A stretch of DNA of 32,000 bases from Ferroglobus placidus DSM 10642 (lineage in GTDB: Archaea > Halobacteriota > Archaeoglobi > Archaeoglobales > Archaeoglobaceae), in NCBI RefSeq assembly GCF_000025505.1, contig NC_013849.1, forward strand, positions 570,001-602,000. Direction: 5' to 3'. The notes under the pieces are model-generated. The model had not been told where the DNA came from and did no database searches. It worked only from the letters and a program-made list of their open reading frames with translations. Below are positions 945-17,787 of the stretch, piece after piece. The translations under genes and the position numbers were made by a program. Within the stretch, counting starts at the first letter, position 1; each line of letters begins with the position of its first letter.

Positions 945-1188
945 CGCTCTCCGATTACGAGATACTCGTCTTAAAAAAGTTAAAAAAGGGAAAAGTGTTG
1001 GGGAGATTGCTAAGGAGCTTGGTTTGCCTGAGCCGATAGTAAGAATAGCGATAGAGAGAGTAAAAAATAAAGAGCTGCCAAAAAAAAGAATAGAATTGAC
1101 GAAAAGTGCCATATTTTTACTTATCGATGCGATAATTCTTTATGTTTTATTGAAGATATTAATAGAGGTGGCAAAATGGTTCCTTTAA
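941..1188 (+). CDS. Small LuxR/sigma-70 region-4-like HTH protein with a C-terminal TM helix, intact only if a -1 frameshift occurs at A_AAA_AAG (alternatively a pseudogene or homopolymer sequencing error)
   Basis: ATG 941 reads MTLSDYEILVLKKLKKGK and then stops at 1037-1039. The -1 frame from ~982-994 continues KSVGEIAKELGLPEPIVRIAIERVKNKELPKKRIELTKSAIFLLIDAIILYVLLKILIEVAKWFL, with a stop at 1186-1188. Joined, the two parts form one canonical HTH. The downstream frame has no ATG, GTG or TTG before 1024. In-phase slippery heptamers A_AAA_AAG lie at 973-979 and 982-988. Confidence 0.4.
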
Positions 1189-1853
1189 TAGAGGTACTCG
1201 TAGCCATCCTTGGAGTTTCGTTAGTTCTCCTCTACAACTATAAGGAGGATTTGGTGCTGGTGTTAAGGTTTTCAAGAATCAGGAGTAAGGTAAAAGATGT
1301 TATCAGAGAAAAACCATCTGTGAGAAAAAAGATTGTTATTGCGGCGATTGAACTCTCTGTTTTTGTGTTCTTAATTTATCTTGTGTTGACAATGAAAATC
1401 TTTTGGACGGTCGTCGTGTCTAACAGCATGTATCCGACTTTCGAGAGAGGAGACATGGTCCTCGTTCAAACAATATTTGTCGAGCCTGAAAAGGGAGATA
1501 TCGTTATGTTCGTTAGAGAGGATGTGAATTTGCCAGTGACTCACAGGGTCTTAGATGTTAAGGATGGGCTCGTTTATACAGGAGGTGACGCGTCCGGTCC
1601 GGATTCGACGCCGGTACCTAAAGACAAGATCATTGGTGAAGTTGTGACGATTTTCGGAAAACCTGTAGTCGTTAAGGGTGTCGGAAACTATTTTATTTTA
1701 GATGCTAAAGAACTGAGAGACATCACGCCCTTTGGCGAGGAGTATCTCTTCTATAAGAGTTTGGTTGAAGTTTTTAGAACCTATGCTCTGGCAATAATTG
1801 TTATAGCGATTGCGGCTTATCTCTACTTGAGTTTTAGAGAAATTACTTTTTAA
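1176..1853 (+). CDS. Signal peptidase I, archaeal/eukaryotic Sec11 type (S26B)
   Basis: The catalytic-Ser box VVVSNSMYPTFERGDMVLV and the His box LPVTHRV are present, flanked by TM helices. The start overlaps the preceding small gene, which suggests an operon. Confidence 0.85.
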   Translation: MVPLIEVLVAILGVSLVLLYNYKEDLVLVLRFSRIRSKVKDVIREKPSVRKKIVIAAIELSVFVFLIYLVLTMKIFWTVVVSNSMYPTFERGDMVLVQTIFVEPEKGDIVMFVREDVNLPVTHRVLDVKDGLVYTGGDASGPDSTPVPKDKIIGEVVTIFGKPVVVKGVGNYFILDAKELRDITPFGEEYLFYKSLVEVFRTYALAIIVIAIAAYLYLSFREITF

Positions 1854-2619
1854 TATTTTTTAAATTGGTTATCCCGTTTTTCAAAGATTCAGTTAGAGAG
1901 TTGTTCGCGTTTCCTCCTACAAGCTTCTTTGCCAGATTATAGTAGTAGTATGCGTAAAAGGCGGATGCTAAAAACATCACGCCCTGTGCAGCAGCAACTC
2001 CTAAGGCTATCCTAAGAAGAATGTATAGTGAGGGGGCTATTAAAACTGGTGCAGCTAACATGACTAAAGCCTCACTTTTGTGGAAAATGTTATATTCGTA
2101 AGTAATAAACAACCACCAGTATAAAAACAAAAGTATAGATATTAGATACAAGTACGGAAGGGTATACTGAGTCATGAAAACAAACGTCCCTAAATAAAAG
2201 AGCATGACTATTAACGCTTTGAAATAAAAGTTTATTTTTTGCTCTGGCGTGAGCTTTTGTGTAGTTGCGAGTTCTTCAACTATCGACACTTTCTTTTCGA
2301 CATCTTCAAGCTTCTTTTTCAGGGCATTAATTTCGATAATTCCCAGAGCGACCTCGTCCATTACAGGTTTAATTTTCGAGTAAACGACTTCATCGAAAGC
2401 TTTTTCGGCTGCAACTTTGTATCCCACGAGCTTTTTTCTAAGGTTGAGACTTCCGCCAACTATAATCGAAGACAGAATTAACAGGGTTAAATCTATTAGA
2501 ATGTTCAATGCAGGTTTCCCGGCTGAGTAATCAATGTAAAAAGAGTAAAGTGATGCTACAAAGAGCAATACGCCTACGATAACAGCGCTTAAGGTCGAGA
2601 TATTTTCGAGGGTATTCAT
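1843..2619 (-). CDS. Hypothetical polytopic membrane protein with a central coiled-coil segment
   Basis: A 258-aa ORF with several hydrophobic helices (N-terminal pair, then 4-5 C-terminal) around a charged segment, EINALKKKLEDVEKKVSIVEELATTQ. I do not recognise the family. Confidence 0.55.
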   Translation of the reverse strand: MNTLENISTLSAVIVGVLLFVASLYSFYIDYSAGKPALNILIDLTLLILSSIIVGGSLNLRKKLVGYKVAAEKAFDEVVYSKIKPVMDEVALGIIEINALKKKLEDVEKKVSIVEELATTQKLTPEQKINFYFKALIVMLFYLGTFVFMTQYTLPYLYLISILLFLYWWLFITYEYNIFHKSEALVMLAAPVLIAPSLYILLRIALGVAAAQGVMFLASAFYAYYYYNLAKKLVGGNANNSLTESLKNGITNLKNIKK

Positions 2620-2706: not shown

Positions 2707-3675
2707 TTACCTCATCACCCTCACAGCAAATATGTTGTGCCAAAGCCCGACAGCAAACAAAGCCATCTCTCTCCTGTCCTCCCTCCTCTGCCTTATCAAC
2801 CATCCAAATCTCCTCTTATCAGCAGAAAATCCTGCCTCACTTAAGTTCCTCTTGAAGTACCTCTTCAGAAACCTATAAGGAGCTTCAACAATCCTCTCGA
2901 TAACCCTCAACCAGTCAAATCCTATTCTGGCAAGATTTCGCTTTGGAATGACGTAGACAGCTGTCTCAGCATCAAACAGCCTCAGAGTCTTCCTACTGCT
3001 GTAATACTTATCCAGAGAAATCGAGTTTACCTTCACCCCCATGCTTTTGAGCATTCCTAAAGCCTTCTCAAAGGCATCTTTCTCAGATCTGTCAGAATAG
3101 CCAAAGCCAACGTACATTCCCGTATCGATGTCAATTATCCTGAAAACGTATCTGAAGTCTTTACCTTTCCTTTTAGGATTGCTTCTATAGTGCTTAGTGA
3201 TGGTTAGGCTGTATCCTGTCCCATCTCCTGAAAAATCTCCTGAAACTCCTTCCTCTCTAAGCAGAAGGATGAAGAGGTTGTGTAAAGCCATTCTAACTTC
3301 TTCATCCGAGTATAATCTTTCTATCGTTTTGTAGCTAACCTTTATCCCGAATAAAGGTTCAAACAGCTCTAAAAGCTCCTCAATATCTCTGTTTGATTTG
3401 TCCATCAGCCTTGCAAACAGAAAGAGCATAACTCTCTTCTCCAGATCAACTTTCTTTGGTCTTCCCACCCTCTTTTGCACGGTTATCACAGAAATAGCCT
3501 CTCTAACGTATTCAGGGAGTTTTCTCAGCCTTTCCTTAACAACTTCTCTCTTCCTCTCCCATTCTGTGTACGGATACTTTTCCTTCTCCTCCTGTCTTAT
3601 CTCCTCTGCAATTTCATCCAAAACATCCAGAAGTTCCCTTACAAACTTCCCTGTCACTCTGAATCCAAGGTTCAT
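2707..3675 (-). CDS. Transposase, ISA1214 family
   Basis: A 322-aa ORF fills the IS. An N-terminal HTH-like region (VGRPKKVDLEKRVMLFLFARL) is followed by a catalytic-like core (FSGDGTGYSL ... IDIDTGMYVGFGY ... SISLDKYYSS ... AGFSADKRRFG). Confidence 0.85.
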   Translation of the reverse strand: MNLGFRVTGKFVRELLDVLDEIAEEIRQEEKEKYPYTEWERKREVVKERLRKLPEYVREAISVITVQKRVGRPKKVDLEKRVMLFLFARLMDKSNRDIEELLELFEPLFGIKVSYKTIERLYSDEEVRMALHNLFILLLREEGVSGDFSGDGTGYSLTITKHYRSNPKRKGKDFRYVFRIIDIDTGMYVGFGYSDRSEKDAFEKALGMLKSMGVKVNSISLDKYYSSRKTLRLFDAETAVYVIPKRNLARIGFDWLRVIERIVEAPYRFLKRYFKRNLSEAGFSADKRRFGWLIRQRREDRREMALFAVGLWHNIFAVRVMR

Positions 3676-3960: not shown

Positions 3961-4707
3961 ATGAGTGTGAGCGGAAGAGTATTACTCGGGATCGTAATAC
4001 TTTTAGCTGTAGGAGTTCTTGTGTTGCCATCGACTGTATCGCTTTTCGCAGGACAGCACGACTGGTACAACATCGACAATCCGGAGAACGACATTCCGTG
4101 CCAGAAGTGTCATGCGGACGTGTTTGATGAGTTAAGTAATAGCCCGTATCACATCAACTTCAGCGGTGGGACTGCTAATCAGGCAGATGAGGCTGATTGC
4201 GGAGCATGCCATCAAGCAGCAGCTGTAGTTGGAGGTGGACTCACCCTCGCAAACGGTAGCGGCGCCTTTGGCTCACCTGGTAAAGAAGCTCATGCGGCTG
4301 CAAGCATAAGCTGTATGTGGTGCCATGGATATCCCGGTAACTTTACAGCCCCTACAGCTGGAGGTTTCGGTATCTCTGGAGACCCCGCAGATACTGGTGC
4401 CTATGCAGCCCACAGACCGTGGGTTCTTTCAGCGATGGCTGACAATCCAGCTAACAACACCGATTTGCTCACAGGACCAAACGAAGCTTGCATAGGCTGT
4501 CACACCCACGTTGCTGTGAGGATTAACTGGACTCATGCTGTAAGCCTTGAATTCAACGCCACCAACACTGGCACTGGCTGGACCACGGAGAACTACAACG
4601 CTAATGGAACAGCTGTAAGGATTGTCTGGGGTAATGCGGAGGGAACTGGTGGATTGCTGTACAACGGAACAACAACAAAGAGCTGGGGAACTGGAACTTG
4701 GCCTTAA
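3961..4707 (+). CDS. Tetrahaem c-type cytochrome with an N-terminal signal or anchor segment (small-cytochrome paralogue 1)
   Basis: Four CXXCH motifs: CQKCH, CGACH, CMWCH, CIGCH. The N-terminus is MSVSGRVLLGIVILLAVGVLVLPSTVSLFAGQHDWY. Conserved extra histidines (GQH, YH, EAHAA, AAHR, HTHV..WTH) would allow bis-His ligation. The C-terminus is WGNAEGTGGLLYNGTTTKSWGTGTWP. Confidence 0.93.
   Translation: MSVSGRVLLGIVILLAVGVLVLPSTVSLFAGQHDWYNIDNPENDIPCQKCHADVFDELSNSPYHINFSGGTANQADEADCGACHQAAAVVGGGLTLANGSGAFGSPGKEAHAAASISCMWCHGYPGNFTAPTAGGFGISGDPADTGAYAAHRPWVLSAMADNPANNTDLLTGPNEACIGCHTHVAVRINWTHAVSLEFNATNTGTGWTTENYNANGTAVRIVWGNAEGTGGLLYNGTTTKSWGTGTWP
3994..4077 (+). repeat. 84-bp block identical to 4841-4924 (signal/anchor region of paralogues 1 and 2)
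   Basis: Aligned by eye at a constant offset of 847 nt, I saw no mismatch. Confidence 0.8.
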
Positions 4708-4742: not shown

Positions 4743-4807
4743 AAACAGCTTAACAAAAACAAAAATTTTTAATTTTGTTTGCATAACATTACTTTGGGGT
4801 GAATAAT

Positions 4808-5566
4808 ATGATGTTAACACCGCGTGTTATCCTTTCTATTGTAATACTTTTAGCTGTAGGAGTTCTTGTGTTGCCATCGACTGTATCGCTTTTCGCAGGA
4901 CAGCACGACTGGTACAACATCGACGCGCGGGGAAACGATATTCCTTGTGAGAAATGCCATGCGGACGTTTACGATGAGCTGAAGAACAATCCGTATCATG
5001 AGAACTTTACATGCGATTTATGTCACAGAGCAATCAACATTTCCTATGCAAGCGGATATAGCAATGGACCGGATATGAGCTATGAGTGGGGTGCTCATGC
5101 GGCATCTACTGTTAGCTGTCTGGTGTGTCATAGTGGACCAAACTCTGGCGAAGGTGCTATGCATGAACATCATGAAGTAGTTGCAGACTGTTCGGTTTGT
5201 CATTCACCAAGTCCTACTGACTATCCTCCAGTGGCAGGGGGATTTGGTTTGACTGGCGAAGCTAATGACACAGGAACTTACGCAGCACACAGGCAGTTCG
5301 TTTTAGATGCTAAAAACAACTCTCTCATGACCTCTGCAAATGAAGCTTGTATAGCCTGCCACACCCATGTTCCAGTAAGAATCAATTGGAGTCATGCTGT
5401 GAGCTTAGAGCTTAACGCCACTCAGATACTCAGCGAATGGACAACCGAGAACTACAACGCTAATGGAACAGCTGTAAGGATTGTCTGGGGTAATGCGGAG
5501 GGAACTGGTGGATTGCTGTACAACGGAACAACAACAAAGAGCTGGGGAACTGGAACTTGGCCTTAA
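4808..5566 (+). CDS. Pentahaem c-type cytochrome with an N-terminal signal or anchor segment (paralogue 2)
   Basis: Five CXXCH motifs: CEKCH, CDLCH, CLVCH, CSVCH, CIACH. The track starts at GTG 4799. I prefer ATG 4808 because GGGGTG lies 5 nt upstream, the same spacing as at 3961 and 12111. The N- and C-terminal coding DNA is identical to paralogue 1. Confidence 0.9.
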   Translation: MMLTPRVILSIVILLAVGVLVLPSTVSLFAGQHDWYNIDARGNDIPCEKCHADVYDELKNNPYHENFTCDLCHRAINISYASGYSNGPDMSYEWGAHAASTVSCLVCHSGPNSGEGAMHEHHEVVADCSVCHSPSPTDYPPVAGGFGLTGEANDTGTYAAHRQFVLDAKNNSLMTSANEACIACHTHVPVRINWSHAVSLELNATQILSEWTTENYNANGTAVRIVWGNAEGTGGLLYNGTTTKSWGTGTWP

Positions 5567-5657: not shown

Positions 5658-8600
5658 ATGAACGTGGGAAGAATTTTACTGTTGCTAACATTCGTAGCAG
5701 TTCTTGCAGCGGTTTCAGCAGCACAAGAGTACGATGGAAGCGTGGCTAAAGTTGTTATACTGAAAAACGGAGTTCCGGAGCTCTACTTTTCGAAAGGAGA
5801 CAAGGTCGAGTTCAGAGTTTACAGCTACGTGGGAGATCAGAAAGATCTCAAGCTGAAACTGTACAACTACAAGGGCGATAGATTCAAAGAAATGAGATTC
5901 TCAAAGAAAGGTGACTACTACGTCGCTTACTGGACAGCAGACAGGGAGGGATGGATTTACTACGTGATAACTTCGAGGGACAAAATCAGGAACATCTGGG
6001 GCTACATTGTTGTTGGGAACAATGATATCGGAAGCATAAAGCTTTACAAAGACGGAGTGGAGAGCGAAAGCTTCGTTCAGGGAGATTACGTTTACGTCAA
6101 AATAAAGACCACCGACAAAGACAAAGTTCGTAGAGTTCTCATAAGCAACTGGGCGGGAGATGTAAGGAGTCTGGATGGAGATGAGGTAGAGATTATTTCT
6201 TCGACCGAAAACGAGCTTTACTTCAGATTCTACCTTGGCAACTATCTAACCGAGCACCTCTATCCTGACAAGTGGGCTTCACTCAGAGTCGAAACGGACA
6301 GAGGAATAAAAGCTTCCACACCGTTCTTCTTCGGAGAAGCCGCTCCAACTCCCACTCCGACACCTACCCCTACACCGACACCCACTCCTACTCCAACGCC
6401 TACTCCCACACCGACTCCTACTCCAACGGCACAGGGAGAAGTTTTGAAACTCTCTTTCGACAGGCTTGCTGTTCTTGACGATCCGAATTCTGGCAGTGCA
6501 GCTTCGGGATTTCAGAACCCGCCTAAAAGCTGGGGCTCGGACTGGTGGTACGGGAGAGCGACAACAATTACAGCATACGCACTTGTAATGAACGGAACTC
6601 CAGTAGCAAATGCACAGGTGACGTTTAAGCTGATAGCACCTGACGGAAGCGTGAAAAAGCAGGTAACTGCATATACCGACTCAAGCGGATTGGCAAAAGC
6701 GAGTTTCGATCTAAACAATGCGAATTTCTACGGCTACTGGAAAATCGTAGCTGAAAGCGGAGCTTTAAGTGCAGAGCAAACCTTCGTTTACAACTGGTGG
6801 GGATGTGCGTGGTGTCATGGAAACGAGAAGCTGACAGACCACGGCACCTACACGCCGAAATCACCATTCGTAATGGGCTACGACTTTCACAGGAATCCGA
6901 AGAAGGGTGAGCATGTTGATCCTATAGTGGACGGCAGGTGCACGGTATGCCACCAGAGCTACGATGCAATTCCCCACGACAGCTACGCTATGCAAGGCAA
7001 AGATGCAATTAAGAACGCTCCTCCTGCCGATCAGTATCCGGCTGGTATTCACAAGGATAAGGTTCAGTGCGAAGACTGCCATGAGCAATCAACTGTTAGA
7101 TATGCCCGTCCGGAAGTTCCAGGCTGTTACGACACGTGCCATCCACTAAAGAATTTCAACCTCACGGCAATTTTCACAACCACCGGCTACTCGGTTGGAG
7201 GCTCTTACAGATCCTTCTACGCCTACGATGTTAACACGGGAGAACCTGCTAAGGCTCACACATCTCAGAAAACCGTGCCCTGCTTGAGCTGCCACAACGC
7301 AGCTCATAACAACACCAAACCTTACGTCGGAGCAGACAACAGCTACACCGAAAACGAGCAGTGCCTGAGCTGTCACGGCTACAAGCACGGAACAAGTGTA
7401 ACGAACTGTGTCGGCTGCCACGGACAGGATGCTCACCTCGTCAAAGCACCGAAGGCAGGAAACTGTATAGAGTGCCACAAAGTTGGAGGCTTCGCACCTA
7501 ACGTTGACGTTGAGGCTTTCAACATCAGCGTTCACGCAAACCTGAATGCCAATGCAGCATCTTCATCAGGCTATCCTTCGGTGGTCGGAGCATGCTGGGC
7601 GTGTCATTATAACGGAACCGAACCTCAGTCGCACGACACGGCAGCGTTTAGAAATCCGAAGAAGTGCGAAGATTGCCACCTCTCAGGAAATTACGGAGCT
7701 CCAGTTGTAGAGGAACACATCAGGTTCGGAAGGGACATAACTGTCAACACATACTGCACGGACTGTCACAGCCTTGGTGAGATGCTGAACGCCTTTAAAG
7801 ATCCAGAAGTAACCAAGAACTCTACGGTCTCCCACTATGCCAGAAAGAGGATAGATTTGAGGACGTGGGATTCGGGAATTTCAGATAACTGTTCTTACTG
7901 TCATCAGAACACGACAACAGTATTCAGTATTGTAATGAGTGATGTCTGGAGCAAAAACGTTCCGCCTCACGCGACAAACTATCCGTCTCCATCGTGCACG
8001 AACTCCACATGTCACAACTCTGGACTGATACACAGCTCAAGCTTGACGAAACCGACACTCACTGACACATACTGTCAGAACTGTCACAGCAAGCAGTTCC
8101 ACAATAATGCCATTGACTGCAGCACCTGCCACCTCGAAAATGGAATGCCGAAAAACATCCACGGAATCAAGTACCTGACTTCTTCCGGAACATTTACATC
8201 GAATCCATCGGATGCTGTGGATTGCACCTCCTGCCATCAACCCGGAAGCTCGACATCTGGAATTCTGAACGCTCCTGTCATTCCAGATCCGCTAAAGCAC
8301 TCCTCAGACAGCAGCGGTCAGAAGTGGGGCAGTTACTGGATGACAGAACTTGAATCCTGCTACTACTGTCACGGTGATACGAAACACGAAGCAAAGGCTC
8401 TTGGAAACGTTTCAAACCTGACTCTCGATCCAGCGAATGTGATGAACTCGTCAAGCCTTACGACAAGGTGGTGTTACGGCTGCCATGTTGCGGGCTATCA
8501 GTATTACATGGGAACGTCATTGAACCCGCAACCTCCTGCAATCGACGTTAACAATCTCGGAAGCGCCAACTGGCTGAACCATTCAAGCTTCGTATCGGCT

Positions 8601-10856
8601 GACAGCACGGATCAAATCTGCATCGCCTGTCACAGCCTTAACGGTAGTTACGCATTAACAACTGCTAACTACGCTCACAGCCTCGATCCGGGAACTTCTG
8701 GCGGACCTGACTGTGTTGCCTGCCACGACATCGGTGGCTTCGCACCTAACGTTGATGTCATGGCTATGAAATCCGGAACTCATGCTAATCTGAACAGCGG
8801 TGCGTACAATGCAACCAAGCTGACAGACGAAATTGACAAAGCTTGCTGGGCATGCCATGGGGATGGAAGCGAGCCCGAGAAGCATCCGACCAGTTACAAG
8901 AATCCAAAGCAGTGCGAAGACTGTCATCTCAGCGGAGCATTCAATGCTCCAGTTGTAGCTAACCACTTCTCCAACGGAGCGAGCATAAAGGTGAATTCAA
9001 CATGCGTTGATTGCCACAGCAAGAACGAAATGCTTACCGCATACAGCGACTCTTCTGTAACAGTCATGTCAGCAGTTAGCCACTACGGCAAGAAGAGAGC
9101 AGACTTACTAACGCCTTCTCAGTACGACACTTACGACGTTAAATGCTCCTACTGCCACCAGAACACAACGACAGCATTCGCAGATGTCATGAAGAGCAGC
9201 TTCAGCTATAACGTGCCGGATCACTCAGATTCTCCGAACTCGCCGAGCTGTGTAGGATTGTGCCACGGATACGGAAGAATGCACGATGAAACGCTCAGCA
9301 AGAAGTCTCTGACAACTTCCAGGATGTGTCTCGACTGCCATTCTGCGGGAGGAAAGTTCAAGCACAACGGAACTGTTGACTGCTTCGTCTGCCACATGGA
9401 TCCCTCAGATTCGATAGGCAAGGCTCAAATACACGGAATTAAGTATCTCCAGAAAGACGGAAGCTTTGTAATGTATCAGCCAGCAAATGCGGTTGATTGC
9501 TACACATGCCATGCAACCGCCAACGTATCGCAAGTGCTGACATCTTATGGCTTAACAGCTCCTCAGATTACATGGTTGGGACACTCAACCGGGCAGAAGT
9601 GGGGAGTGTACTGGACAACAGATAACCAAGCCTGCGAATACTGTCATGGTGATACCAAGCACAACACAACTGCGCTTGGTAGAATCTCTCTCATAGCAGA
9701 CACATCAACGCTCGACAGCTTGGTATGCGCAGCTTGTCATGCAACAGACTCAGCCAACTACGCCGGAGATAAATGGTCTCCAACACCGCCAAGCATTGTC
9801 GGAACGGCTATAAATGAAGAATGGGTCAGCCACGACTTCCTCGGAGGAGATTACAGAGCCTCGAACTGTGCTGCATGCCACAATCCGGATGCTGCAGACG
9901 TTACCCAGCTTGCACACGACGTTAAAGCTGCAGCTGGAGGCTGTATTCAGTGTCATGCCAACCAGAGCGTTGCTTATGTTAACGTGAATGCAATGGGAAG
10001 ACACGCCAACGTTGACGGAGATGCAAATCTTACTGACAAAGACTGCACAACCTGCCATTTCGACATAAGCGGCAAATTCTCCGCTAACTACAAACCGATT
10101 GCCGGAGTTAACGTTTACAGCTGCGAAGACTGCCACGTTAACGGTAATCCGGTTAGCGTTCCGGCAGATGTGCAGATTTCGTCCTTCCAGCACGGTCTAA
10201 ACGACTGCAAGTCATGCCACATCGTCAGTTACGGATATCACTACGCTTCTCCGCTCGGTGATGTAGCAGCACTTCCAAGCTTCAGCTCGGATTATAGAAC
10301 GAATGAAGCAACGAGGGTTAACCTGTGCAACGACTGCCACCACAGAATGAACGCTGACGATGAGCCGTTCCACGCTCCCGGAATAACTCCAGCAATGGCG
10401 GGTTACTCCTCATGCGGCAGTGGAGGGTGGTGTCATGGTGGAAGCAGAGAAACGACGGATCCGCACTACGTTAAGCAGATATATCAATCGCCGTGGTTCT
10501 CATACTCGCTGAACATGCCCGATAACGTGTCCGGAAAGTTCAATGCATCTCTAAAGATATGGACAAACAACATACAGATGCACTACGGATATTACGAGGT
10601 GATTGACAGCTTCGGCAATGTAATCCTTAGAGCGAATCTCACTCCAGATGATGGAGAATGGGGACAGAGTTACGCAAACTGGGGAAGAGACAGCATTGAA
10701 AGCTTCACGATTTCAATCGATCCGTCTGGCTGGATGCCCGGCAACTACACCGTAAAGTTCTACGTGATGAGGGACGCTCCGAAAGTCGATCCGTCGAAGC
10801 CGTACTACATGAACGGCTACATACTGACTGTGAGCAAGCAGTTTGCAGTTCAGTAA
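5658..10856 (+). CDS. Giant secreted multihaem c-type cytochrome: 33 CXXCH plus 4 spacing variants, up to 37 haems
   Basis: The signal peptide is MNVGRILLLLTFVAVLAAVSA/AQE. Next come two Ig-like beta domains, a (PT)14 linker, and a Big/MG-like domain. The haem region starts at WWGCAWCH. I counted 33 CXXCH motifs plus CYDTCH, CTNSTCH, CVGLCH and CGSGGWCH. A C-terminal Ig-like domain follows. There are no Cys residues outside haem motifs. There is no TM or C-terminal anchor. Confidence 0.95.
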   Translation: MNVGRILLLLTFVAVLAAVSAAQEYDGSVAKVVILKNGVPELYFSKGDKVEFRVYSYVGDQKDLKLKLYNYKGDRFKEMRFSKKGDYYVAYWTADREGWIYYVITSRDKIRNIWGYIVVGNNDIGSIKLYKDGVESESFVQGDYVYVKIKTTDKDKVRRVLISNWAGDVRSLDGDEVEIISSTENELYFRFYLGNYLTEHLYPDKWASLRVETDRGIKASTPFFFGEAAPTPTPTPTPTPTPTPTPTPTPTPTPTPTAQGEVLKLSFDRLAVLDDPNSGSAASGFQNPPKSWGSDWWYGRATTITAYALVMNGTPVANAQVTFKLIAPDGSVKKQVTAYTDSSGLAKASFDLNNANFYGYWKIVAESGALSAEQTFVYNWWGCAWCHGNEKLTDHGTYTPKSPFVMGYDFHRNPKKGEHVDPIVDGRCTVCHQSYDAIPHDSYAMQGKDAIKNAPPADQYPAGIHKDKVQCEDCHEQSTVRYARPEVPGCYDTCHPLKNFNLTAIFTTTGYSVGGSYRSFYAYDVNTGEPAKAHTSQKTVPCLSCHNAAHNNTKPYVGADNSYTENEQCLSCHGYKHGTSVTNCVGCHGQDAHLVKAPKAGNCIECHKVGGFAPNVDVEAFNISVHANLNANAASSSGYPSVVGACWACHYNGTEPQSHDTAAFRNPKKCEDCHLSGNYGAPVVEEHIRFGRDITVNTYCTDCHSLGEMLNAFKDPEVTKNSTVSHYARKRIDLRTWDSGISDNCSYCHQNTTTVFSIVMSDVWSKNVPPHATNYPSPSCTNSTCHNSGLIHSSSLTKPTLTDTYCQNCHSKQFHNNAIDCSTCHLENGMPKNIHGIKYLTSSGTFTSNPSDAVDCTSCHQPGSSTSGILNAPVIPDPLKHSSDSSGQKWGSYWMTELESCYYCHGDTKHEAKALGNVSNLTLDPANVMNSSSLTTRWCYGCHVAGYQYYMGTSLNPQPPAIDVNNLGSANWLNHSSFVSADSTDQICIACHSLNGSYALTTANYAHSLDPGTSGGPDCVACHDIGGFAPNVDVMAMKSGTHANLNSGAYNATKLTDEIDKACWACHGDGSEPEKHPTSYKNPKQCEDCHLSGAFNAPVVANHFSNGASIKVNSTCVDCHSKNEMLTAYSDSSVTVMSAVSHYGKKRADLLTPSQYDTYDVKCSYCHQNTTTAFADVMKSSFSYNVPDHSDSPNSPSCVGLCHGYGRMHDETLSKKSLTTSRMCLDCHSAGGKFKHNGTVDCFVCHMDPSDSIGKAQIHGIKYLQKDGSFVMYQPANAVDCYTCHATANVSQVLTSYGLTAPQITWLGHSTGQKWGVYWTTDNQACEYCHGDTKHNTTALGRISLIADTSTLDSLVCAACHATDSANYAGDKWSPTPPSIVGTAINEEWVSHDFLGGDYRASNCAACHNPDAADVTQLAHDVKAAAGGCIQCHANQSVAYVNVNAMGRHANVDGDANLTDKDCTTCHFDISGKFSANYKPIAGVNVYSCEDCHVNGNPVSVPADVQISSFQHGLNDCKSCHIVSYGYHYASPLGDVAALPSFSSDYRTNEATRVNLCNDCHHRMNADDEPFHAPGITPAMAGYSSCGSGGWCHGGSRETTDPHYVKQIYQSPWFSYSLNMPDNVSGKFNASLKIWTNNIQMHYGYYEVIDSFGNVILRANLTPDDGEWGQSYANWGRDSIESFTISIDPSGWMPGNYTVKFYVMRDAPKVDPSKPYYMNGYILTVSKQFAVQ
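6345..6428 (+). repeat. (Pro-Thr)14 linker coding repeat
   Basis: It encodes PTPTPT...PT using mixed synonymous codons (CCA/CCG/CCT/CCC, ACT/ACA/ACC/ACG), so it is not a pure microsatellite. Confidence 0.9.
6774..7376 (+). repeat. ~603-bp block near-identical to 12543-13145 in giant cytochrome 2
   Basis: The offset is constant at 5769 nt with no indels. By eye I saw roughly 15 mismatches, almost all synonymous and clustered between ~6948 and ~7135. The last ~230 bp has one mismatch, giving F to L. The block covers haem motifs 1-5 plus CYDTCH. Confidence 0.85.
7458..8705 (+). repeat. Haem module copy A (~416 aa, 10 CXXCH plus 1 CX4CH)
   Basis: It runs from GNCIECHKVGGFAPNVDVEAF to QICIACHSLNG. 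It aligns position by position with copy B: CWACH, NPKxCEDCHLSG, CxDCH, SHYxxKRxDL, CSYCHQNTTT, IHGIKYL, GQKWGxYW, CxYCHGDTKH. Confidence 0.85.
8706..9941 (+). repeat. Haem module copy B (tandem duplicate of 7458-8705, diverged)
   Basis: It runs from PDCVACHDIGGFAPNVDVMAM to SNCAACHNPD. The first Cys codons of the two copies (7464 and 8712) are exactly 1248 nt apart. A third, truncated and degenerate start (GGCIQCHANQSVAYVNVNAMGRHAN) begins at ~9942. Confidence 0.85.
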
Positions 10857-10878: not shown

Positions 10879-12003
10879 TTATTTTAAAATTTTTCTCAAC
10901 ATTGCGGCTGAAGTAATTGAGAGGATTAATACTTCCACTCCAAGTGGGCTTTCTTTTGAAGTCTTTTCGTCGTTCCAGTATTTTACGGAAAAAGTCTCGG
11001 CTGGTATTTCGCTTTTGTTTACTATAGCCAGCCATATACTCCTGTTCTCCCTGAATATGGCTGACTGGTAAGCTACGATAACTCTGTCTTTTTCTATCAG
11101 AACGCTTTTTTGGTCGCATTTGAAGTTGAAAGGCTCTTCGAGCTGAGAAATGTACTCCACATTTCTCGACAGCTTTACAGGCTTGGTCCAGTTCACACCA
11201 TCTCTGCTGCTGATAAGATATACTTCCTCGTTGCCCTCCACTGTTGACGTGTAGGCAATCCAGATTCTCTCATCATCCGCCTTGGCATCGTTGTAGAGTG
11301 TGAAGTTTAGGGGAGGCGTGGAGGTTATTCTCGCGTGATTTTTCAGCTCGTAAGGTGAATCGCCATAGGCAATGAATATGTCGTGGTTGTTGAGGAGAGT
11401 CAGATTATCTTTGTCTCCTGTAAACTTCGCGTAGTTCATCCACCATTTTCCTTTGAATTCAAACAACTTTCCGAAAATGTATTCACCGTCTGGCGGAATT
11501 ACCACTTTCGCTTCGCTCCACGTTATGAAATCACGGCTTTCTCTTACGTAAATCCCGGTGCTTCCGTTCTCTTCAGCTACGCTGTACGTCAGCCAGAACT
11601 TTCCGCTTTTATCCTGATAAAGGTGTGGATACCAGTCTATCTTTTCGCTTTCCGCAACCGGATAAGGTTCGACCCAGTTCACACCATCGTAGCTGTAGGT
11701 CGCGTATATGTCGTAGTCGAATCCGTATTTTATCGACTCCGGATTTATTATCTCGTGCTTAACGTAAACGACTCTGAAAACTCCGTTTCTGTCGATGATA
11801 AACCACGGATGATAATCTCCCTGCTTCGTTCCGGGTATTTTCACAGGAGCGCTCCAGCTTTTTAAATCCTTCGAGCTTGTTATGTATATTCCGTCGTCGC
11901 CCTTGAAGACCATCCAGTAAGTGTCGTTAAATTTTTCCAGAACCGGATAACCTCCGTTGAACAGGTATATCAGCGTAACCAGAACAGCAGCAGTCTTCAG
12001 CAT
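10879..12003 (-). CDS. Secreted BNR/Asp-box repeat beta-propeller protein (sialidase-fold-like) with a C-terminal hydrophobic tail
   Basis: The N-terminal signal is MLKTAAVLVTLIYLFNGG. There are four Asp-box-like motifs: SSKDLKSWS, SYDGVNWV, SRDFITWS, SSRDGVNWT. The C-terminus is PLGVEVLILSITSAAMLRKILK. Confidence 0.75.
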   Translation of the reverse strand: MLKTAAVLVTLIYLFNGGYPVLEKFNDTYWMVFKGDDGIYITSSKDLKSWSAPVKIPGTKQGDYHPWFIIDRNGVFRVVYVKHEIINPESIKYGFDYDIYATYSYDGVNWVEPYPVAESEKIDWYPHLYQDKSGKFWLTYSVAEENGSTGIYVRESRDFITWSEAKVVIPPDGEYIFGKLFEFKGKWWMNYAKFTGDKDNLTLLNNHDIFIAYGDSPYELKNHARITSTPPLNFTLYNDAKADDERIWIAYTSTVEGNEEVYLISSRDGVNWTKPVKLSRNVEYISQLEEPFNFKCDQKSVLIEKDRVIVAYQSAIFRENRSIWLAIVNKSEIPAETFSVKYWNDEKTSKESPLGVEVLILSITSAAMLRKILK

Positions 12004-12098: not shown

Positions 12099-12110
12099 GG
12101 GGTGAATCCA

Positions 12111-15100
12111 ATGAAAACCCGCTTTTTAACTGAGGTAGCTTTATCAATTTTGCTTCTACTTGTAATCATCCCGATCACTGAGGCTCAGGAATTTAATGTA
12201 AAACTCTCTCTCGACAGGCTTGTTGTTCTTGACGATCCGAATTCTGGCAGTGCCGCTTCGGGATTTCAGAACCCGCCTAAAAGCTGGGACTCGGACTGGT
12301 GGTACGGAAGGGCAACGACGATAAAGGCGTACGCTGTAGTTCTTGGAGAAGAAGGTGCTTTGTCGGGTGTTCAGGTAACTTTTAGACTTATAAACCCGAA
12401 CGGTAATGTCGAATACACCACCACAGCAACGACCAACGCTGCGGGAATTGCGGAATTCGAATACGATATGAACAACAAGAATTACTACGGCTACTGGAAG
12501 GTTGAGGCTGAGGTAACCCTCGACGGAGTTACAAAGAGGGCGGAGCAAACCTTCGTTTACAACTGGTGGGGATGTGCGTGGTGTCATGGAAACGAGAAGC
12601 TGACAGACCACGGCACCTACACGCCGAAATCACCATTCGTAATGGGCTACGACTTTCACAGGAATCCGAAGAAGGGTGAGCATGTTGATCCTATAGTGGA
12701 CGGCAGGTGCACGGTGTGCCACCAGAGCTACGATGCAATTCCGCACGACAGCTACGCTATGCAAGGAAAAGATGCAATTAAGAACGCTCCTCCTGCCGAT
12801 CAGTATCCGGCTGGTATTCACAAAGATAAGGTTCAGTGCGAAGATTGTCATGAGCAATCGACGGTCAGATATGCTCGCCCTGAAGTTCCAGGCTGTTATG
12901 ACACGTGCCATCCACTAAAGAATTTCAACCTCACGGCAATTCTCACAACCACCGGCTACTCGGTTGGAGGCTCTTACAGATCCTTCTACGCCTACGATGT
13001 TAACACGGGAGAACCTGCTAAGGCTCACACATCTCAGAAAACCGTGCCCTGCTTGAGCTGCCACAACGCAGCTCATAACAACACCAAACCTTACGTCGGA
13101 GCAGACAACAGCTACACCGAAAACGAGCAGTGCCTGAGCTGCCACCTCAACGGTCAGCACTCCACAACAAATCCTGTTGATTGTGTTGACTGCCACAGTC
13201 AGGATGCCCATTCAATAAAGGTTGTGAAGAAGGGAGGAGGCTACGATTCTCCCTCTTCGAGCAATTCAGTACTTAAAAAGGATTGCGAGGAGTGTCACGT
13301 TTCAACAACCGGGAGCTTTTTCGAATCAAAAGGATACTCACCGAGGACTGACAGCTTTGGCAATAGCATAGCGAAGCACGCCGGAAAAGTTGATTGCAAA
13401 GACTGTCATGGAGATGAGAGCAGATTCCACAGAATAGCTTATCTGAGTTCTGACGGTAGTTTTGCTGACAAGCAGAGTGCATCGTACTGCTTCGACTGTC
13501 ACACGAATTCCGGAGCAAATTCTTACATAGAATCTAGAGGATACTATCCGCTAGCTATAACTTCCTTCCAGCATGGAAACGCGAGCTACGATGGTAAAAA
13601 CTGGGGCACTTACTGGAGTTCAGACAGAGAAGCATGTTACTACTGCCATCAGAGGTCTCCGCATGGAGATGTTAAAGGCAACGTTTCTGGACTGGATGTT
13701 AAAGCGGATTTATCTGGAAAAGCCTGTGCCGCATGTCACGTTAAAAGCTATTCGGGCTATATCGGAGACAGGTTGAACCCCGAACCTCCTGCAATTGACG
13801 TGAACAACACCGGCAGAGCTAAAAATTCAGCTGGAGAGGAATGGTATAACCATACGAGGTATCTTGAAGACTACAACGATGCAACGTGTTTTGGCTGTCA
13901 CGCACCTTCTCCGGACTTTCCGAGGGACTTCTACGCATTCGTCCACAACGTGGAAGAGGGATTAAGACCGGGGGCTGATTGCGCTTCTTGCCACGATCTG
14001 AACGAAAGACCGCCGAAAAGAGTGGATGTTTCAGCTTTTTCAAATTCGGTGCACGCCAATCTCAACAGCAACGCCTTAAACAGCACACCGGTAAATCCGC
14101 TGAGTAAAGCATGCTGGCTGTGTCATGGCGATGGGACTGAGCCGTCGGATCATCCCGACAACTATAAGAATCCGAAGAAGTGCGAAGATTGCCACCTCTC
14201 AGGAAATTACGGAGCTCCAGTTGTGGAGGAGCATATAAAGAGTGGAAAGCATGTTAAGGTTTCGGCGGAATGCTGGGACTGTCACGGCATTTCCGAGATG
14301 GTTGTTTTAAACTCGGACGAAGAAGGATCGAGTAAGGCTTTCGCAAGTCATTACGCGAAGCTGAGACAGGACTTATGGGTAAGAGGGTATTCGGGGGATG
14401 TCGGTCTGGATTGCTATTACTGTCACCAGAACGCAACATCGGCATTTAAAGCAGTAATGAAGAACGAGAATCACACCTACATGCCGGATCACGGTCTGAA
14501 TGACAGATCTTGTTGGGCTTGTCACGGGTTGGAGATGCATGTAAGATTGGACAAGCCTTCGGTTTCAAACACTTACTGCAAATCCTGTCATTCAGGCTAC
14601 GAGCTGCACAACGGAACTGTCAGCTGTTACGTCTGTCACATGGACGGAAGCGATACCACATACGACTCACCAAAAGCCCAGATTCACGGAATAAAGTACC
14701 CGTCTGCAAACGGCTACACTTCAGTAAAAAGCAAGGGGTGCTACGGATGCCATACGGGCAAGCTGAGCAAATCCACAAATGCCTGGGGAGTTTCTGTTCC
14801 AACAATTCCCGAATTCAGCCACAGCAACTATCCAAATAACGGAACGAGGTGGGGAGATTACTGGAATAGCGTTGATGATGCTTGCATATACTGTCACACC
14901 CCTGCCGTTCACAGCTCGAATTTGAAAGGAAACGTTTCGATTGTTAAAGGTTCGAACAGCTACAGAGCAGATTTAGCAAACTCATACTGGTGTTCCGCGT
15001 GCCACTACTCCTCGTACTCAGGATACAAAGGAGATTCCCTCAATCCTACGCCTCCTGACATCGCATCCTATTCAACCCCCTCAGACGGCATAAAGTGGTT

Positions 15101-17030
15101 CGATCACTCTTCCTATATCTCCTCAGATTATTCCGATGCGAAGTGCCTTGAGTGCCATGGAGAGAATGTCGTGAGAAGCAATGAGTTCGTCCATGCCGTT
15201 AAAGAAGGAGTGGGAGGAGCTTGCATGGATTGCCATACCGATCCTTATTATTCCTCGGTTGCTGTGAACGTTTCATCCTTTGGGAGGCATGCGAAGGTTG
15301 ATGGAAGAGAAGGCTTAGATGTCGATGACTGCAGGATCTGCCACTATTCTCCGTGGGAAATGCTCAGGAGTGGGTGGACTATCGTAAGCGTGACTTGCGA
15401 GGATTGTCATAAAGGAAACGTTCCAGAAGATGTCAAGATAACAGCTTTCCAGCACGGGAGCAACAGCTGTATTGATTGTCATGCGGGGGGCGGTTACGAG
15501 AAAGGTAAGCTTTACCACTATGACTTCTCCACGCCCTATGGATCTGTGAAGGATCCAGGGTGGAGCGAATGGAGCAAGAGCGTCGTTGACTGCTACGACT
15601 GCCATGTCAGCCATGCAAAGAGCGAGCCGTTCTACGCGATTGGAATAAGCAGCTACATGGCAACGAGCTTTTCATCCTGTGGCGGAGTTAACTGTCACGG
15701 AGGTGGAACTGTTCACAATGTCGTTAAAAGTCCGTACATGTATCCTCCGTTTGTCAGAGTCTCGATTGAGAGAAACATGGTACTCGAAGGAGAAACCGTT
15801 AGCGTTTCAGCCGATATATGGGGATACGACGTCCAGATTAACGATTCTTGGTATGAAGTGCTGGATGCAAAAGGCAACGTCCTTCTTTCCGGTAAAGCCT
15901 TACCGTCTGATGGCAGTTTCGGAGGACTCAAAAACGGATATGGATACGAGAGGGTTGAATTCAGCTTCAACGCAAACTTCGAACCCGGAGTTTACGAGGT
16001 AAGAGTGTATGCTGAGAAGGATACCGGTATGACTTCTTATGGCGAAGCCGAGCTCATTGTTGGGGCTGCTGGCAGCTCTGCTGCGAACTTCTACTTCGAA
16101 TCATGGAATCTCGACGGAACGCTGACGAACTGGGCTTTCGGAGGTAGCGGAACGCTTGAGAAGAGCAGCATTTCAAAGTCCGGATACTCTGCCAAGATCA
16201 CAGCAACCAGCGAGGCTTGGATCGAGAGCATAAAATTCCCTGTTGAAAGCAATAAAGAATACCTCGTAATCGTGTTCGCCAACTTCAGCAATAAGGTCGG
16301 TCTGACAGTGAAGAAGTGGAGCAATAATGCTCTACTGGAAACGACCCCAGAGGTCGTGGCTGAAGGAAATCCGGGAAGGTGGATAGCTTTTGGAACGGTG
16401 GTGAATTCCGGAAACGCCGACAATCTTTCAATACTGCTTAAGGTTTACAGCGGATACGCTTACTTCGACAACGTGTCTGTCGTAGCAGTTCCTCTGCTTG
16501 AGAACAGGGCAGTAAACGGGGAATTTGAAGAGGATGAAGATGCTTATGCGAGCTACGAAAAATCTGACGAGAACGTAAAAGCCTGGGAGCCGAAGAAGGT
16601 TAGCGGTTTCGTTTTGCCGGCAAAATATCCGGGGAGAGGTAGAGTTCTGGCTGTGCTTGGAACGGGATACTGGACTTCAGCGTATCAGGACGAAAGCTTC
16701 AGCACAGCTGCGAGAAGCTACGCAAGGGATTACGGGATAAGGATGTCTGGCGAATTCATCATCCTCGCGGACATCTACAAGTCATCCGAAGGTTTCGGAG
16801 GAGTTGAGCTGACATTCTGGGACTGGAGTTTCGATCAGGCGAAGAATAACCTTGTAGAGGATGGCTCTTACAAAGTTGGATTCTACGACAGTACCGACTG
16901 GAGAACTGTGGTAATCATAGACGACATGAATAATGCGAATTTGCTCCAAATAAAACTCAAGGGAGAGAACGTTAAAGAGCTAATGTTCGATAGAGTCAGA
17001 TGCTACTTGAACGAGGGAGTGGTAAACTAA
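12111..17030 (+). CDS. Giant secreted multihaem c-type cytochrome (29 CXXCH plus 2 variants) with a C-terminal Ig-like domain and two CBM4_9-like jelly-roll domains
   Basis: The track starts at GTG 12102. ATG 12111 is preferred (MKTRFLTEVALSILLLLVIIPITEA/QE). I counted 29 CXXCH plus CYDTCH and CGGVNCH. After the last haem motif (~15690) comes an Ig-like domain. Two domains then follow, starting N.xFE..W-like and ending YFDNVSVV and MFDRVRCY. There is no TM anchor. Confidence 0.95.
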   Translation: MKTRFLTEVALSILLLLVIIPITEAQEFNVKLSLDRLVVLDDPNSGSAASGFQNPPKSWDSDWWYGRATTIKAYAVVLGEEGALSGVQVTFRLINPNGNVEYTTTATTNAAGIAEFEYDMNNKNYYGYWKVEAEVTLDGVTKRAEQTFVYNWWGCAWCHGNEKLTDHGTYTPKSPFVMGYDFHRNPKKGEHVDPIVDGRCTVCHQSYDAIPHDSYAMQGKDAIKNAPPADQYPAGIHKDKVQCEDCHEQSTVRYARPEVPGCYDTCHPLKNFNLTAILTTTGYSVGGSYRSFYAYDVNTGEPAKAHTSQKTVPCLSCHNAAHNNTKPYVGADNSYTENEQCLSCHLNGQHSTTNPVDCVDCHSQDAHSIKVVKKGGGYDSPSSSNSVLKKDCEECHVSTTGSFFESKGYSPRTDSFGNSIAKHAGKVDCKDCHGDESRFHRIAYLSSDGSFADKQSASYCFDCHTNSGANSYIESRGYYPLAITSFQHGNASYDGKNWGTYWSSDREACYYCHQRSPHGDVKGNVSGLDVKADLSGKACAACHVKSYSGYIGDRLNPEPPAIDVNNTGRAKNSAGEEWYNHTRYLEDYNDATCFGCHAPSPDFPRDFYAFVHNVEEGLRPGADCASCHDLNERPPKRVDVSAFSNSVHANLNSNALNSTPVNPLSKACWLCHGDGTEPSDHPDNYKNPKKCEDCHLSGNYGAPVVEEHIKSGKHVKVSAECWDCHGISEMVVLNSDEEGSSKAFASHYAKLRQDLWVRGYSGDVGLDCYYCHQNATSAFKAVMKNENHTYMPDHGLNDRSCWACHGLEMHVRLDKPSVSNTYCKSCHSGYELHNGTVSCYVCHMDGSDTTYDSPKAQIHGIKYPSANGYTSVKSKGCYGCHTGKLSKSTNAWGVSVPTIPEFSHSNYPNNGTRWGDYWNSVDDACIYCHTPAVHSSNLKGNVSIVKGSNSYRADLANSYWCSACHYSSYSGYKGDSLNPTPPDIASYSTPSDGIKWFDHSSYISSDYSDAKCLECHGENVVRSNEFVHAVKEGVGGACMDCHTDPYYSSVAVNVSSFGRHAKVDGREGLDVDDCRICHYSPWEMLRSGWTIVSVTCEDCHKGNVPEDVKITAFQHGSNSCIDCHAGGGYEKGKLYHYDFSTPYGSVKDPGWSEWSKSVVDCYDCHVSHAKSEPFYAIGISSYMATSFSSCGGVNCHGGGTVHNVVKSPYMYPPFVRVSIERNMVLEGETVSVSADIWGYDVQINDSWYEVLDAKGNVLLSGKALPSDGSFGGLKNGYGYERVEFSFNANFEPGVYEVRVYAEKDTGMTSYGEAELIVGAAGSSAANFYFESWNLDGTLTNWAFGGSGTLEKSSISKSGYSAKITATSEAWIESIKFPVESNKEYLVIVFANFSNKVGLTVKKWSNNALLETTPEVVAEGNPGRWIAFGTVVNSGNADNLSILLKVYSGYAYFDNVSVVAVPLLENRAVNGEFEEDEDAYASYEKSDENVKAWEPKKVSGFVLPAKYPGRGRVLAVLGTGYWTSAYQDESFSTAARSYARDYGIRMSGEFIILADIYKSSEGFGGVELTFWDWSFDQAKNNLVEDGSYKVGFYDSTDWRTVVIIDDMNNANLLQIKLKGENVKELMFDRVRCYLNEGVVN
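12543..13145 (+). repeat. Partner of the 6774-7376 near-identical block
   Basis: See the 6774-7376 feature. A second, shorter similar patch is 12201-12335 versus 6447-6580 (LDDPNSGSAASGFQNPPKSW). A ~60-bp patch at 14167-14235 matches 7651-7720 (NPKKCEDCHLSGNYGAPVVEEH). Confidence 0.85.
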
Positions 17031-17058: not shown

Positions 17059-17787
17059 ATGATGAAGAGAACTCTTACTTTAATCCTTGTAATTTTTTCG
17101 TTTTCGATTTACATACTTCCGTCTACCGTCTCATTATTCCCCGGAGAGCATTTATGGTACGATCTTGAGCAATCCGGAACGGGAGTTCCGTGCGTTAAAT
17201 GTCATGCCGACATTTACGATGAACTCAATAATTCTGCCTATCACAAAATATGGGGAGATCCGAACAAAGCTGACAGCCAAGATTGCTACACGTGCCACAC
17301 GATAAACCAAAGTATAACCTATGCCGATGCTGATATTGGTGTTACAGGCAAAGAGGCTCACGCAGCTTCGACTATAAACTGCGGATACTGCCACTTCAAC
17401 TCGTCGATAGCCTCTGCAATGGGTACAATTGTGGCTGGAGGTTTTGGAAAGAGCGATTTGACTGGAGACACAGGAGAGGTTGAAGCTCACAGAGAGTTTC
17501 TGGAGAGCGCTATGCTTGACGATCCGGTCTACGGATCTAATTTATTGGAGAAGGAAAACGAGGCTTGTATAGCTTGCCATTCTGCTGTTCCAGTAAAAAT
17601 TCACTTCGCTCACAGGGAAAAGCTGAGCTTCAGGGCTGAGAAGAACAGCAAGGGATTGTGGAACCATCCGAGCTTTGGGTCTTCTGGCTACGTTAATACG
17701 ACCGTCTGGGGCAATGCGATGGGAAGCGGAGGTTTTTACAACAATTCAACCACCAAAAAGGCTTGGGGTGATGCCACATGGCCTTGA
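17059..17787 (+). CDS. Tetrahaem c-type cytochrome with an N-terminal signal or anchor segment (paralogue 3)
   Basis: CVKCH, CYTCH, CGYCH, CIACH. The N-terminus is MMKRTLTLILVIFSFSIYILPSTVSLFPGEHLWY. The C-terminus TVWGNAMGSGGFYNNSTTKKAWGDATWP is shared with paralogues 1 and 2. It lies only 28 nt after giant 2, so it is probably co-transcribed. Confidence 0.92.
   Translation: MMKRTLTLILVIFSFSIYILPSTVSLFPGEHLWYDLEQSGTGVPCVKCHADIYDELNNSAYHKIWGDPNKADSQDCYTCHTINQSITYADADIGVTGKEAHAASTINCGYCHFNSSIASAMGTIVAGGFGKSDLTGDTGEVEAHREFLESAMLDDPVYGSNLLEKENEACIACHSAVPVKIHFAHREKLSFRAEKNSKGLWNHPSFGSSGYVNTTVWGNAMGSGGFYNNSTTKKAWGDATWP

Follow-up and report, generated by a model that had tools for sequence, protein, structure and literature searches.

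A tandemly repeated 12-haem unit in the giant cytochrome Ferp_0670 of Ferroglobus placidus and in related archaeal cytochromes

Results

Three Giant Cytochromes at One Locus

A stretch of 32,000 nucleotides (nt) of the archaeon Ferroglobus placidus DSM 10642 (contig NC_013849.1, positions 570,001 to 602,000; the whole stretch is called the window here, and all coordinates are window positions) contains three very large plus-strand open reading frames (ORFs) of 1732, 1642 and 1864 amino acids (aa), which encode giant multihaem cytochromes; the first of them carries two adjacent copies of a 12-haem unit, the subject of this analysis. Giant 1 (Ferp_0670; 5658–10856), giant 2 (Ferp_0672; 12102–17030) and giant 3 (ADC64847, Ferp_0676; 19612–25206) have 37, 31 and 24 haem-attachment motifs of the form C(X2-5)CH, respectively. 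Their locus tags were deduced from neighbouring tags and accession order, exact protein matches being found for the ORFs at 3961–4707 (Ferp_0668) and 17059–17787 (Ferp_0673); for giant 1, no database record has precisely the start of this ORF. The strict form CXXCH occurs 33 times in giant 1, in agreement with the published maximum of 33 for an archaeal protein, also reported in F. placidus (PMC4429474).

ORF translation, motif counting and Pfam matches give giant 1 a layout of a signal-peptide-like N-terminus, an immunoglobulin (Ig)-like domain, a Pro-Thr-rich linker, the haem motifs and a haem-free C-terminal domain. The haem-free domains of the giants are Ig-like and CBM-like, and giant 3, which matches CBM_4_9, is annotated in databases as a carbohydrate-binding CenC domain protein. 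Judged by eye, the N-termini of the giants resemble signal peptides, and export is predicted; no C-terminal membrane helix was seen by eye in the translations, and a Pfam search of the three proteins gave no peptidase-M6-like or pectin-lyase match.

Two Tandem Copies of a 12-Haem Unit in Giant 1

A preliminary description of this locus, made from the sequence alone, had proposed that positions 7458–9941 hold a tandem duplication of a module with ~11 haems. The duplication proved to be real, and the number of haems had to be raised to 12, as both copies have a final CXXCH (at C988 and C1404) that had been overlooked. Copy A (7458–8705, plus strand; aa 601–1016) and copy B (8706–9941, plus strand; aa 1017–1428) carry 12 haem motifs each, B beginning directly after A and in register. 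End-to-end alignment of the two copies yielded 41.5% identity over 426 columns (E 9e-104), and a profile of the unit matched copy A over its positions 2–446 (E 1.9e-135). From the first Cys of A (C603) to that of B (C1019) the offset is 416 aa or 1248 nt, exactly as originally noted, and the order of shared motifs listed at that time was read correctly from the translations. Spacing between successive motifs is nearly equal in A, B and the full copy of giant 2, the sixth motif being a variable CX2-4CH site.

The similarity persists once the haem motifs are taken out of account. Masking all of them leaves 332 aligned columns with 40.1% identity between A and B, and a shuffle control, in which inter-motif residues were permuted with motif positions fixed, gave a mean score of 196 (standard deviation 26) vs. 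the observed 858 (z = 25). At the nucleotide level the A/B repeat is not detectable, and A and B are therefore neither a recent duplication nor an assembly artefact.

Make-up of the Unit

The profile used for domain parsing comprises 52 full copies and ~446 positions. All 12 haem motifs are invariant in the full copies from relatives (52 of 52), and the non-haem motifs SHYG, GxxWxxYW and PP are conserved as well. Candidate distal ligands are provided by 11 further His residues that are invariant or nearly so (one of them in 51 of 52 copies) and by a twelfth position occupied by His in 44 copies and by Met in five. Because 12 motifs are thus accompanied by 12 conserved His/Met positions, the unit appears to be self-sufficient, with 12 proximal and 12 candidate distal ligands; donation of a ligand by a neighbouring module, considered when 12 motifs and only 11 His had been counted, became unneeded once the twelfth position was found.

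No Pfam or NCBIfam model spans the whole unit. Pieces of it match the generic models Cytochrome_C7 (PF14522) and Cytochrom_c3_2, and its C-terminal five-haem part matches PF22113 (MtrC/MtrF domain II/IV), with 62.8 bits in B (module residues 205–349; cutoff 30), 51.9 bits in the giant-2 module (residues ~200–350) and, in copy A, just an N-terminal fragment (31.4 bits). The earlier suggestion of a new multihaem domain family therefore stands for the unit as a whole but not for its parts.

Profile matches start at position 1 in 227 of 286 cases, which indicates that the N-terminal boundary originally chosen is a natural one; 97 of the 286 reach the module end, and match ends cluster at ~105, ~155, ~190, ~215 and 418. 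The N-terminal part (profile position 1 to ~150–212) is found alone, caps most arrays and is self-repeated in some proteins, being tripled on its own in the relatives L047 and L048, and arrays usually have a C-terminal half before them and an N-terminal part after them. Judged from these matches, the 415-aa unit is a composite cassette of separable parts, the young copies of which still duplicate as whole units.

A possible homology between the N-terminal and C-terminal halves of the unit was rejected. Although hhalign paired haems 2–6 with haems 8–12 (probability 96.6%, E 5e-10), the signal is that of motif recurrence, given that 20 controls with shuffled inter-motif columns scored 37–77 vs. 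68 observed.

Module Copies and Caps in Giants 2 and 3

Profile matches bore out the reuse of the module across all three giants (the features below are all on the plus strand). Giant 2 has one full copy (13974–15218; aa 625–1039, profile positions 1–446, E 3.5e-121), which is 38–40% identical to A and B, and a preceding half-copy (13368–13961; aa ~423–620), as had been described; the half is the C-terminal one (profile positions 236–443, E 8.3e-47) and matches A, B and the full giant-2 copy with a BLASTP E value of about 1e-32. The single copy of giant 3 is split after its ninth haem into a first part with nine haem motifs (20920–21891; aa 437–760, of which aa 437–754 match profile positions 1–320, E 2.5e-78), a haem-free insert of ~310 aa (21892–22818; aa 761–1069) and a last part with three haem motifs (22819–23232; aa 1070–1207, of which aa 1077–1205 match profile positions 325–444, E 7.7e-27). 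A copy split by an insertion is thus what had been reported, but its end lies near 23232 and not at ~23000. The insert has no Pfam match; homologues occur at the equal module position in the Geoglobus orthologue (80% identical) and in the Methanoperedens-type giants P0124, P0214, L032, L039 and L040 (24–28%), and in terms of sequence it represents an uncharacterised domain family.

A cap follows the modules in giant 1 (9942–10457; aa 1429–1600, six haem motifs; ending DDEPFHAPGI...CGSGGWCHGG), in giant 2 (15219–15731; aa 1040–1210; ending KSEPFYAIGI...CGGVNCHGGG) and in giant 3 (23233–23766; aa 1208–1385; ending DDEPFHAPGI...CSGSNCHGDG). The motif (D/S)EPF(H/Y)A.GI...SSC...CHG is indeed common to all three, as first noted, but it does not form the end of the proteins, as 130–480 haem-free residues follow. 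The giant-1 cap starts like a new module (aa 1429–1501 match profile positions 3–83, E 5e-10), and from this resemblance we read the cap as a degenerate partial module.

Arrays and Copy Number in Relatives

The search of other genomes that the preliminary description had proposed was carried out with a first profile built from three window copies, with which the ORFs of 78 relatives' loci were scanned. It found the unit in Methanoperedens, anaerobic methanotrophic archaea (ANME) of group ANME-2, Archaeoglobi JdFR-42, Geoglobus, Hydrothermarchaeum profundi, Methanocellales and a few metagenome-assembled genomes (MAGs) labelled bacterial, with most module homologues coming from Methanoperedens and ANME-2. 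Among 1.84 billion representative proteins, the family comprises 325 clusters (50% identity) at E <= 1e-30, with members of up to 5724 aa.

In the 78 loci, between one and four full copies of the unit (approximate numbers in the case of MAGs) follow one another head to tail and in register, and a protein of 3294 aa with 69 CXXCH (P0100) has five, extending the range to at least five. At array junctions the next copy begins 0–6 residues past the end of the previous one, and identity between neighbouring copies ranges from 44% to 99%. In different genomes adjacent copies are mutual nearest relatives, at 99.3, 97.5, 72, 70, 68, 65 and 52% identity, which argues for recurrent duplication at different times. 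Some duplications are young enough to be visible in DNA by repeat search and BLASTN: locus L003 has three repeats at an exact spacing of 1323 nt, the first two being 99.3% identical over 1320 nt, and locus L004 has a period of 1350 nt with 99.8% identity over 1291 nt. Some copy pairs are mosaic, near-identity being confined to part of the unit. With in-register head-to-tail copies, a variable number of them and young copies at the DNA level, the family has the features of tandem-repeat proteins. These arrays and young copies, together with the one-unit orthologue described below, lend strong and independent support to the view that haem wires lengthen by duplication of whole units; the principle itself had already been established (PMC11492766, PMC9250108).

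The proteins from bacterial-labelled MAGs that bear the module, or are related to those that do, are from locus L008 (JBBITV010000022.1) or are P0018, P0093, P0096 and P0097, the labels being Chloroflexota, Aquabacterium, Proteobacteria, Gemmatimonadetes and Symbiobacteriaceae; L008 has two full copies, 72% identical. Their presence may reflect either horizontal transfer or binning error.

A Geoglobus Orthologue One Unit Shorter and Probable Exchange Between Copies

In Geoglobus acetivorans, giant 1 has an orthologue (P0166, WP_193806472) of 1318 aa vs. 1732 aa, i.e., 414 aa shorter. It is syntenic, as the accessions of the giant-1 and giant-3 orthologues are six genes apart, the same distance as in F. 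placidus. In its flanks it shares 71–80% identity with Ferp_0670. Residues 1–75 of its single module are 80% identical to A and 54% to B, and residues 76–412 are 79% identical to B and 42% to A. By these identities the module is an A-head/B-tail chimera, and the sister genera thus differ by an in-register change of one unit. Since divergence between A and B far exceeds that between the orthologues, the common ancestor most likely had both copies; most likely, then, the duplication predates the Ferroglobus/Geoglobus split, and recombination of A with B would have removed one unit in the Geoglobus lineage.

The crossover maps to around module residue 75, inside the conserved NPK.CEDCHL stretch. 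In copy A the conserved NPKKCEDCHLSGNYGAPVVEEHI stretch (7653–7720, plus strand), a candidate recombination site, has 95.6% nucleotide identity to 14169–14236, and this 68-nt tract is both a candidate conversion tract with the giant-2 module and the spot where the Geoglobus chimera turns from A-like to B-like. Giants 1 and 2 also share the haem region N-terminal to the modules (6447–7376 vs. 12201–13145, 87.6% identical over 949 nt); from ~6807 to 7376 (~570 nt) identity is mostly 95–100%, with one 60-nt block at 88%. As the modules of these two giants are only ~40% identical as protein, the near-identical region before them looks like the outcome of recent gene conversion.

A Model of the A/B Junction

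An AlphaFold2 model of the A/B junction (aa 806–1260, 55 aligned sequences), which includes six haem sites from the end of A and eight from the start of B, reached a mean predicted local distance difference test (pLDDT) score of 76.9 and a predicted template modelling (pTM) score of 0.68, with block means of 74–94 just before, across and after the junction. These confidence scores, obtained from a haem-free model, fit a defined and packed junction, not a flexible linker. A sequence search of the PDB retrieved no related solved structure, the sole match being a chance-level one to a reaction-centre cytochrome.

Gene Neighbourhood

Interspersed with the giants are five small multihaem cytochrome genes, one BNR-like gene and one PKD-domain gene. 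The small cytochromes at 3961–4707, 4799–5566, 17059–17787, 17778–18404 and 18386–19555, all on the plus strand, are homologues of AvECN, the extracellular cytochrome nanowire subunit of Archaeoglobus veneficus (PDB 8E5G), with E values of 2.8e-48 for Ferp_0668 (nearly full length) and 2.9e-15 for the ORF at 18386–19555. As AvECN homologues flank the giants, the island pairs subunits of polymerising nanowires with covalent giant wires. The paralogues at 3961–4707 and 4799–5566, both upstream, have DNA stretches in common at 86–88% identity.

The BNR-like gene lies between giant 1 and giant 2 and codes for a BNR/sialidase-like beta-propeller (10879–12003, minus strand; Pfam BNR_2 E 3.6e-7, just under cutoff). 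Short imperfect DNA repeats code for Pro-Thr linkers in giant 1 (6343–6428) and in the PKD-domain protein encoded at 25651–26811 (26286–26609), and two repeat stretches inside the PKD gene match one another. On one flank the window holds the housekeeping genes hisG and CCA-adding enzyme, and on the other a signal-peptidase-like gene and an IS5-like transposase. The transposase gene (2707–3675, minus strand; NCBIfam NF033579 E 5e-12, below cutoff) is directly upstream of the cytochrome island. The signal-peptidase-like gene (1176–1853, plus strand; Peptidase_S24/S26) adjoins a gene whose multi-pass membrane product has no family match (1843–2619, minus strand). In Chadwick et al. (2022), a signal peptidase and an unannotated eight-helix membrane protein are described as present only in ANME, Ferroglobus and Geoglobus, and this pair is proposed there to mature large cytochromes (PMC9012536). 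No tRNA or Rfam match was obtained in the window.

Discussion

A Copy-Number-Variable Cassette in Giant Archaeal Cytochromes

At a probability of roughly 0.8, we conclude that the two copies in Ferp_0670 are a real duplication of a family-wide, copy-number-variable 12-haem cassette of ~415 aa. This conclusion is carried by the homology of the copies, the unit boundaries, the in-register arrays, the variation in copy number and the chimeric orthologue. In the explanation that we propose, positions 7458–9941 would stem from an old tandem duplication, in frame, of a cassette that is self-contained and lies in a secreted giant cytochrome. The same cassette is probably the repeat unit of one family of giant extracellular cytochromes in archaea, and neighbouring copies would undergo unequal homologous recombination, by which precisely one unit at a time is gained or lost with the register kept. 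Provided that the sites are occupied, each unit would extend a single, unbroken haem chain by 12 haems, most of them bis-His, and the number of copies would determine how long a covalent wire is and how many electrons it can store, the wire taking electrons of respiration from the envelope of the cell to minerals. In favour of this explanation, Smith et al. (2015), as cited in PMC13104607, counted Ferp_0670 and Ferp_0672 as two of three key cytochromes of Fe(III) reduction; F. placidus requires direct contact with the oxide (PMC8280799). Homology to highly expressed Methanoperedens cytochromes was tabulated as early as 2015 (PMC4683180).

Several points weigh against this interpretation as a whole or against parts of it. 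Copies A and B are no nearer to each other (44% identity in the module comparison) than to the modules of other genera (45–46%), so that a duplication inside Ferp_0670 itself is only the probable origin of the pair, and one of the copies may instead derive from recombination with a paralogue. Partial copies and arrays of the N-terminal part alone indicate that the 415-aa unit is not the sole unit of exchange. Near-identical repeats in MAGs are prone to misassembly, which makes copy numbers there approximate. The AlphaFold2 model of a single module (alignment of 29 sequences) has a pLDDT of only 57 and is poor over residues 86–236, and a Foldseek search against the PDB gave no match for either this or the junction model. 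Continuity of the haem chain within modules and across junctions is a prediction, the AlphaFold2 models being haem-free. Finally, no phenotype is tied to copy number, and taken on its own a length-setting function of copy number seems to us evenly balanced between true and false.

Alternative Explanations

The best-surviving alternative, which we regard as possible though clearly the less probable reading, holds that the true units are sub-modules, an N-terminal one of ~5–7 haems and a C-terminal, MtrC-like one of five haems, that the giants were built by shuffling of these, and that the 415-aa unit is just a frequent combination. Such an arrangement would account for the clustering of match ends at four positions besides 418, for the N-terminal part repeated three times by itself, for the halves that bracket arrays, for the lone C-terminal half in giant 2 and for the restriction of PF22113 to the C-terminal part. 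Recent duplicates nevertheless extend over entire units (99.3% identity along 1320 nt; repeats every 1323 or 1350 nt), the Geoglobus/Ferroglobus difference amounts to exactly one whole unit, and a third of profile matches (97 of 286) run to the module end. The sub-module reading therefore complements duplication of whole units and does not replace it.

That recombination or gene conversion brought A or B in from a paralogous giant appears unlikely, even though exchange between paralogues has left its probable traces at this locus (the mostly 95–100% identical ~570 nt before the modules of giants 1 and 2, and the 68-nt tract at 95.6%) and A and B resemble each other no more than they resemble modules of other genera. 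A donor for such an import is not identifiable, copy A being just 38% identical to the giant-2 module, and the perfect register of the two copies, together with the many in-situ duplications in relatives, makes local duplication the simpler explanation.

More improbable still is a gain of the unit in Ferroglobus instead of its loss in Geoglobus, i.e., a one-module ancestor in which an A-tail and a B-head were inserted. With two orthologues only, the direction of the change is not fixed by an outgroup; however, fresh duplicates would be near-identical, and the identity between A and B (42–53%) compared with that of the orthologous flanks (71–80%) makes the copies much older than the split of the genera. 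Chance recurrence of CXXCH in a haem-rich protein, named beforehand as the finding that would overturn the duplication, retains practically no weight, for although motif recurrence alone can mimic profile homology (as it did for the module halves, at E 5e-10 with shuffled controls scoring equally), A and B keep their 40% identity with motifs masked at z = 25 over motif-keeping shuffles, and many non-haem residues are invariant across the 52 copies.

Significance and Outlook

The giants are the presumed electron outlets of iron-reducing Archaeoglobi, of methane-oxidising Methanoperedens and of ANME-2, and Methanoperedens and ANME-2 help to control methane emissions. Giant cytochromes of this type have usually been described just by their haem count and accessory domains; a profile of the unit divides proteins of 1,500–5,700 residues into comparable parts, and one unit or a two-unit junction is an obvious choice of construct for expression and structural work. 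The hypothesis of a wire length set by copy number can be tested, and since the Ferroglobus/Geoglobus pair is one unit apart and both are cultured hyperthermophiles, the comparison is experimentally tractable. The principle as such is unsurprising, and it is the unit, the evidence for recombination and the one-unit orthologue pair that make the question of wire length testable.

In its most far-reaching form, which on present evidence we consider rather doubtful, the proposal would make the cassette a genetically adjustable length unit. Through recombination at the conserved motif NPK.CEDCH, exactly one rigid segment of 12 haems would be gained or lost at a time, and lineages, perhaps even populations, could fit their wires to the thickness of the envelope or to how far away a mineral or partner cell is. 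The giants would constitute a covalent alternative to polymerising nanowires, with a multihaem fold of a new structural type for which no relative has been solved.

Comparison With Known Systems

Construction of haem wires by concatenation and duplication of modules is known from the c7 polymers of Geobacter and from work on modular evolution of cytochromes (PMC11492766, PMC9250108). The duplication principle and the link of the F. placidus proteins to Fe(III) reduction were known before, and what is new is the uncurated 12-haem unit and the variation in its copy number, of which no earlier description was found in the open literature searched, subscription papers being mostly outside the scope of that search.

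Like the giants, the Geobacter c7 polymers (dodecahaem GSU1996 and the 27-haem GSU0592 type) are covalent wires of a repeated multihaem domain in one polypeptide, and the generic Cytochrome_C7 model matches the giants. The Geobacter unit is a three-haem domain of ~75–80 aa, whereas the giants have 12 haems per ~415-aa unit and carry Ig-like and CBM-like domains in addition; the former proteins are bacterial and the latter archaeal. The NCBIfam model of c7 nanowires (TIGR04257) has no match in the giants.

A second resemblance is to MtrC, MtrF and OmcA of Shewanella, surface-located terminal reductases of metal oxides, whose PF22113 model matches the C-terminal five-haem part of the module; MtrC, too, holds a duplicated domain, in its case a pentahaem one. 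Unlike in these proteins, beta-barrel domains I/III do not accompany the PF22113 match in the module, and there is no MtrAB porin partner, the host being an archaeon. The OmcA/MtrC model TIGR03507 was hit by giant 3 only, at 17.6 bits vs. a cutoff of 209, and the DmsE model likewise stayed far below its cutoff.

The closest relatives are the multihaem cytochromes of ANME, types A, B and C, which belong to the same giant archaeal family as the F. placidus proteins; archaeal cytochromes of comparable size are reported by Chadwick et al. (2022; PMC9012536) only from Ferroglobus and Geoglobus. The ANME classes of that paper rest on accessory domains, and a repeated 12-haem unit is not described in the sections consulted. 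In contrast to types A and B, none of the three F. placidus giants has a Pfam match to the S-layer domain PF07752, which is present in some of the module-bearing relatives.

Finally, the polymeric nanowires OmcS, OmcE, OmcZ, PcECN and AvECN serve the same end, a chain of close-packed extracellular haems on a micrometre to nanometre scale. They are non-covalent polymers with four to eight haems per subunit, whereas in the giants the length is fixed genetically, by the repeats within one polypeptide.

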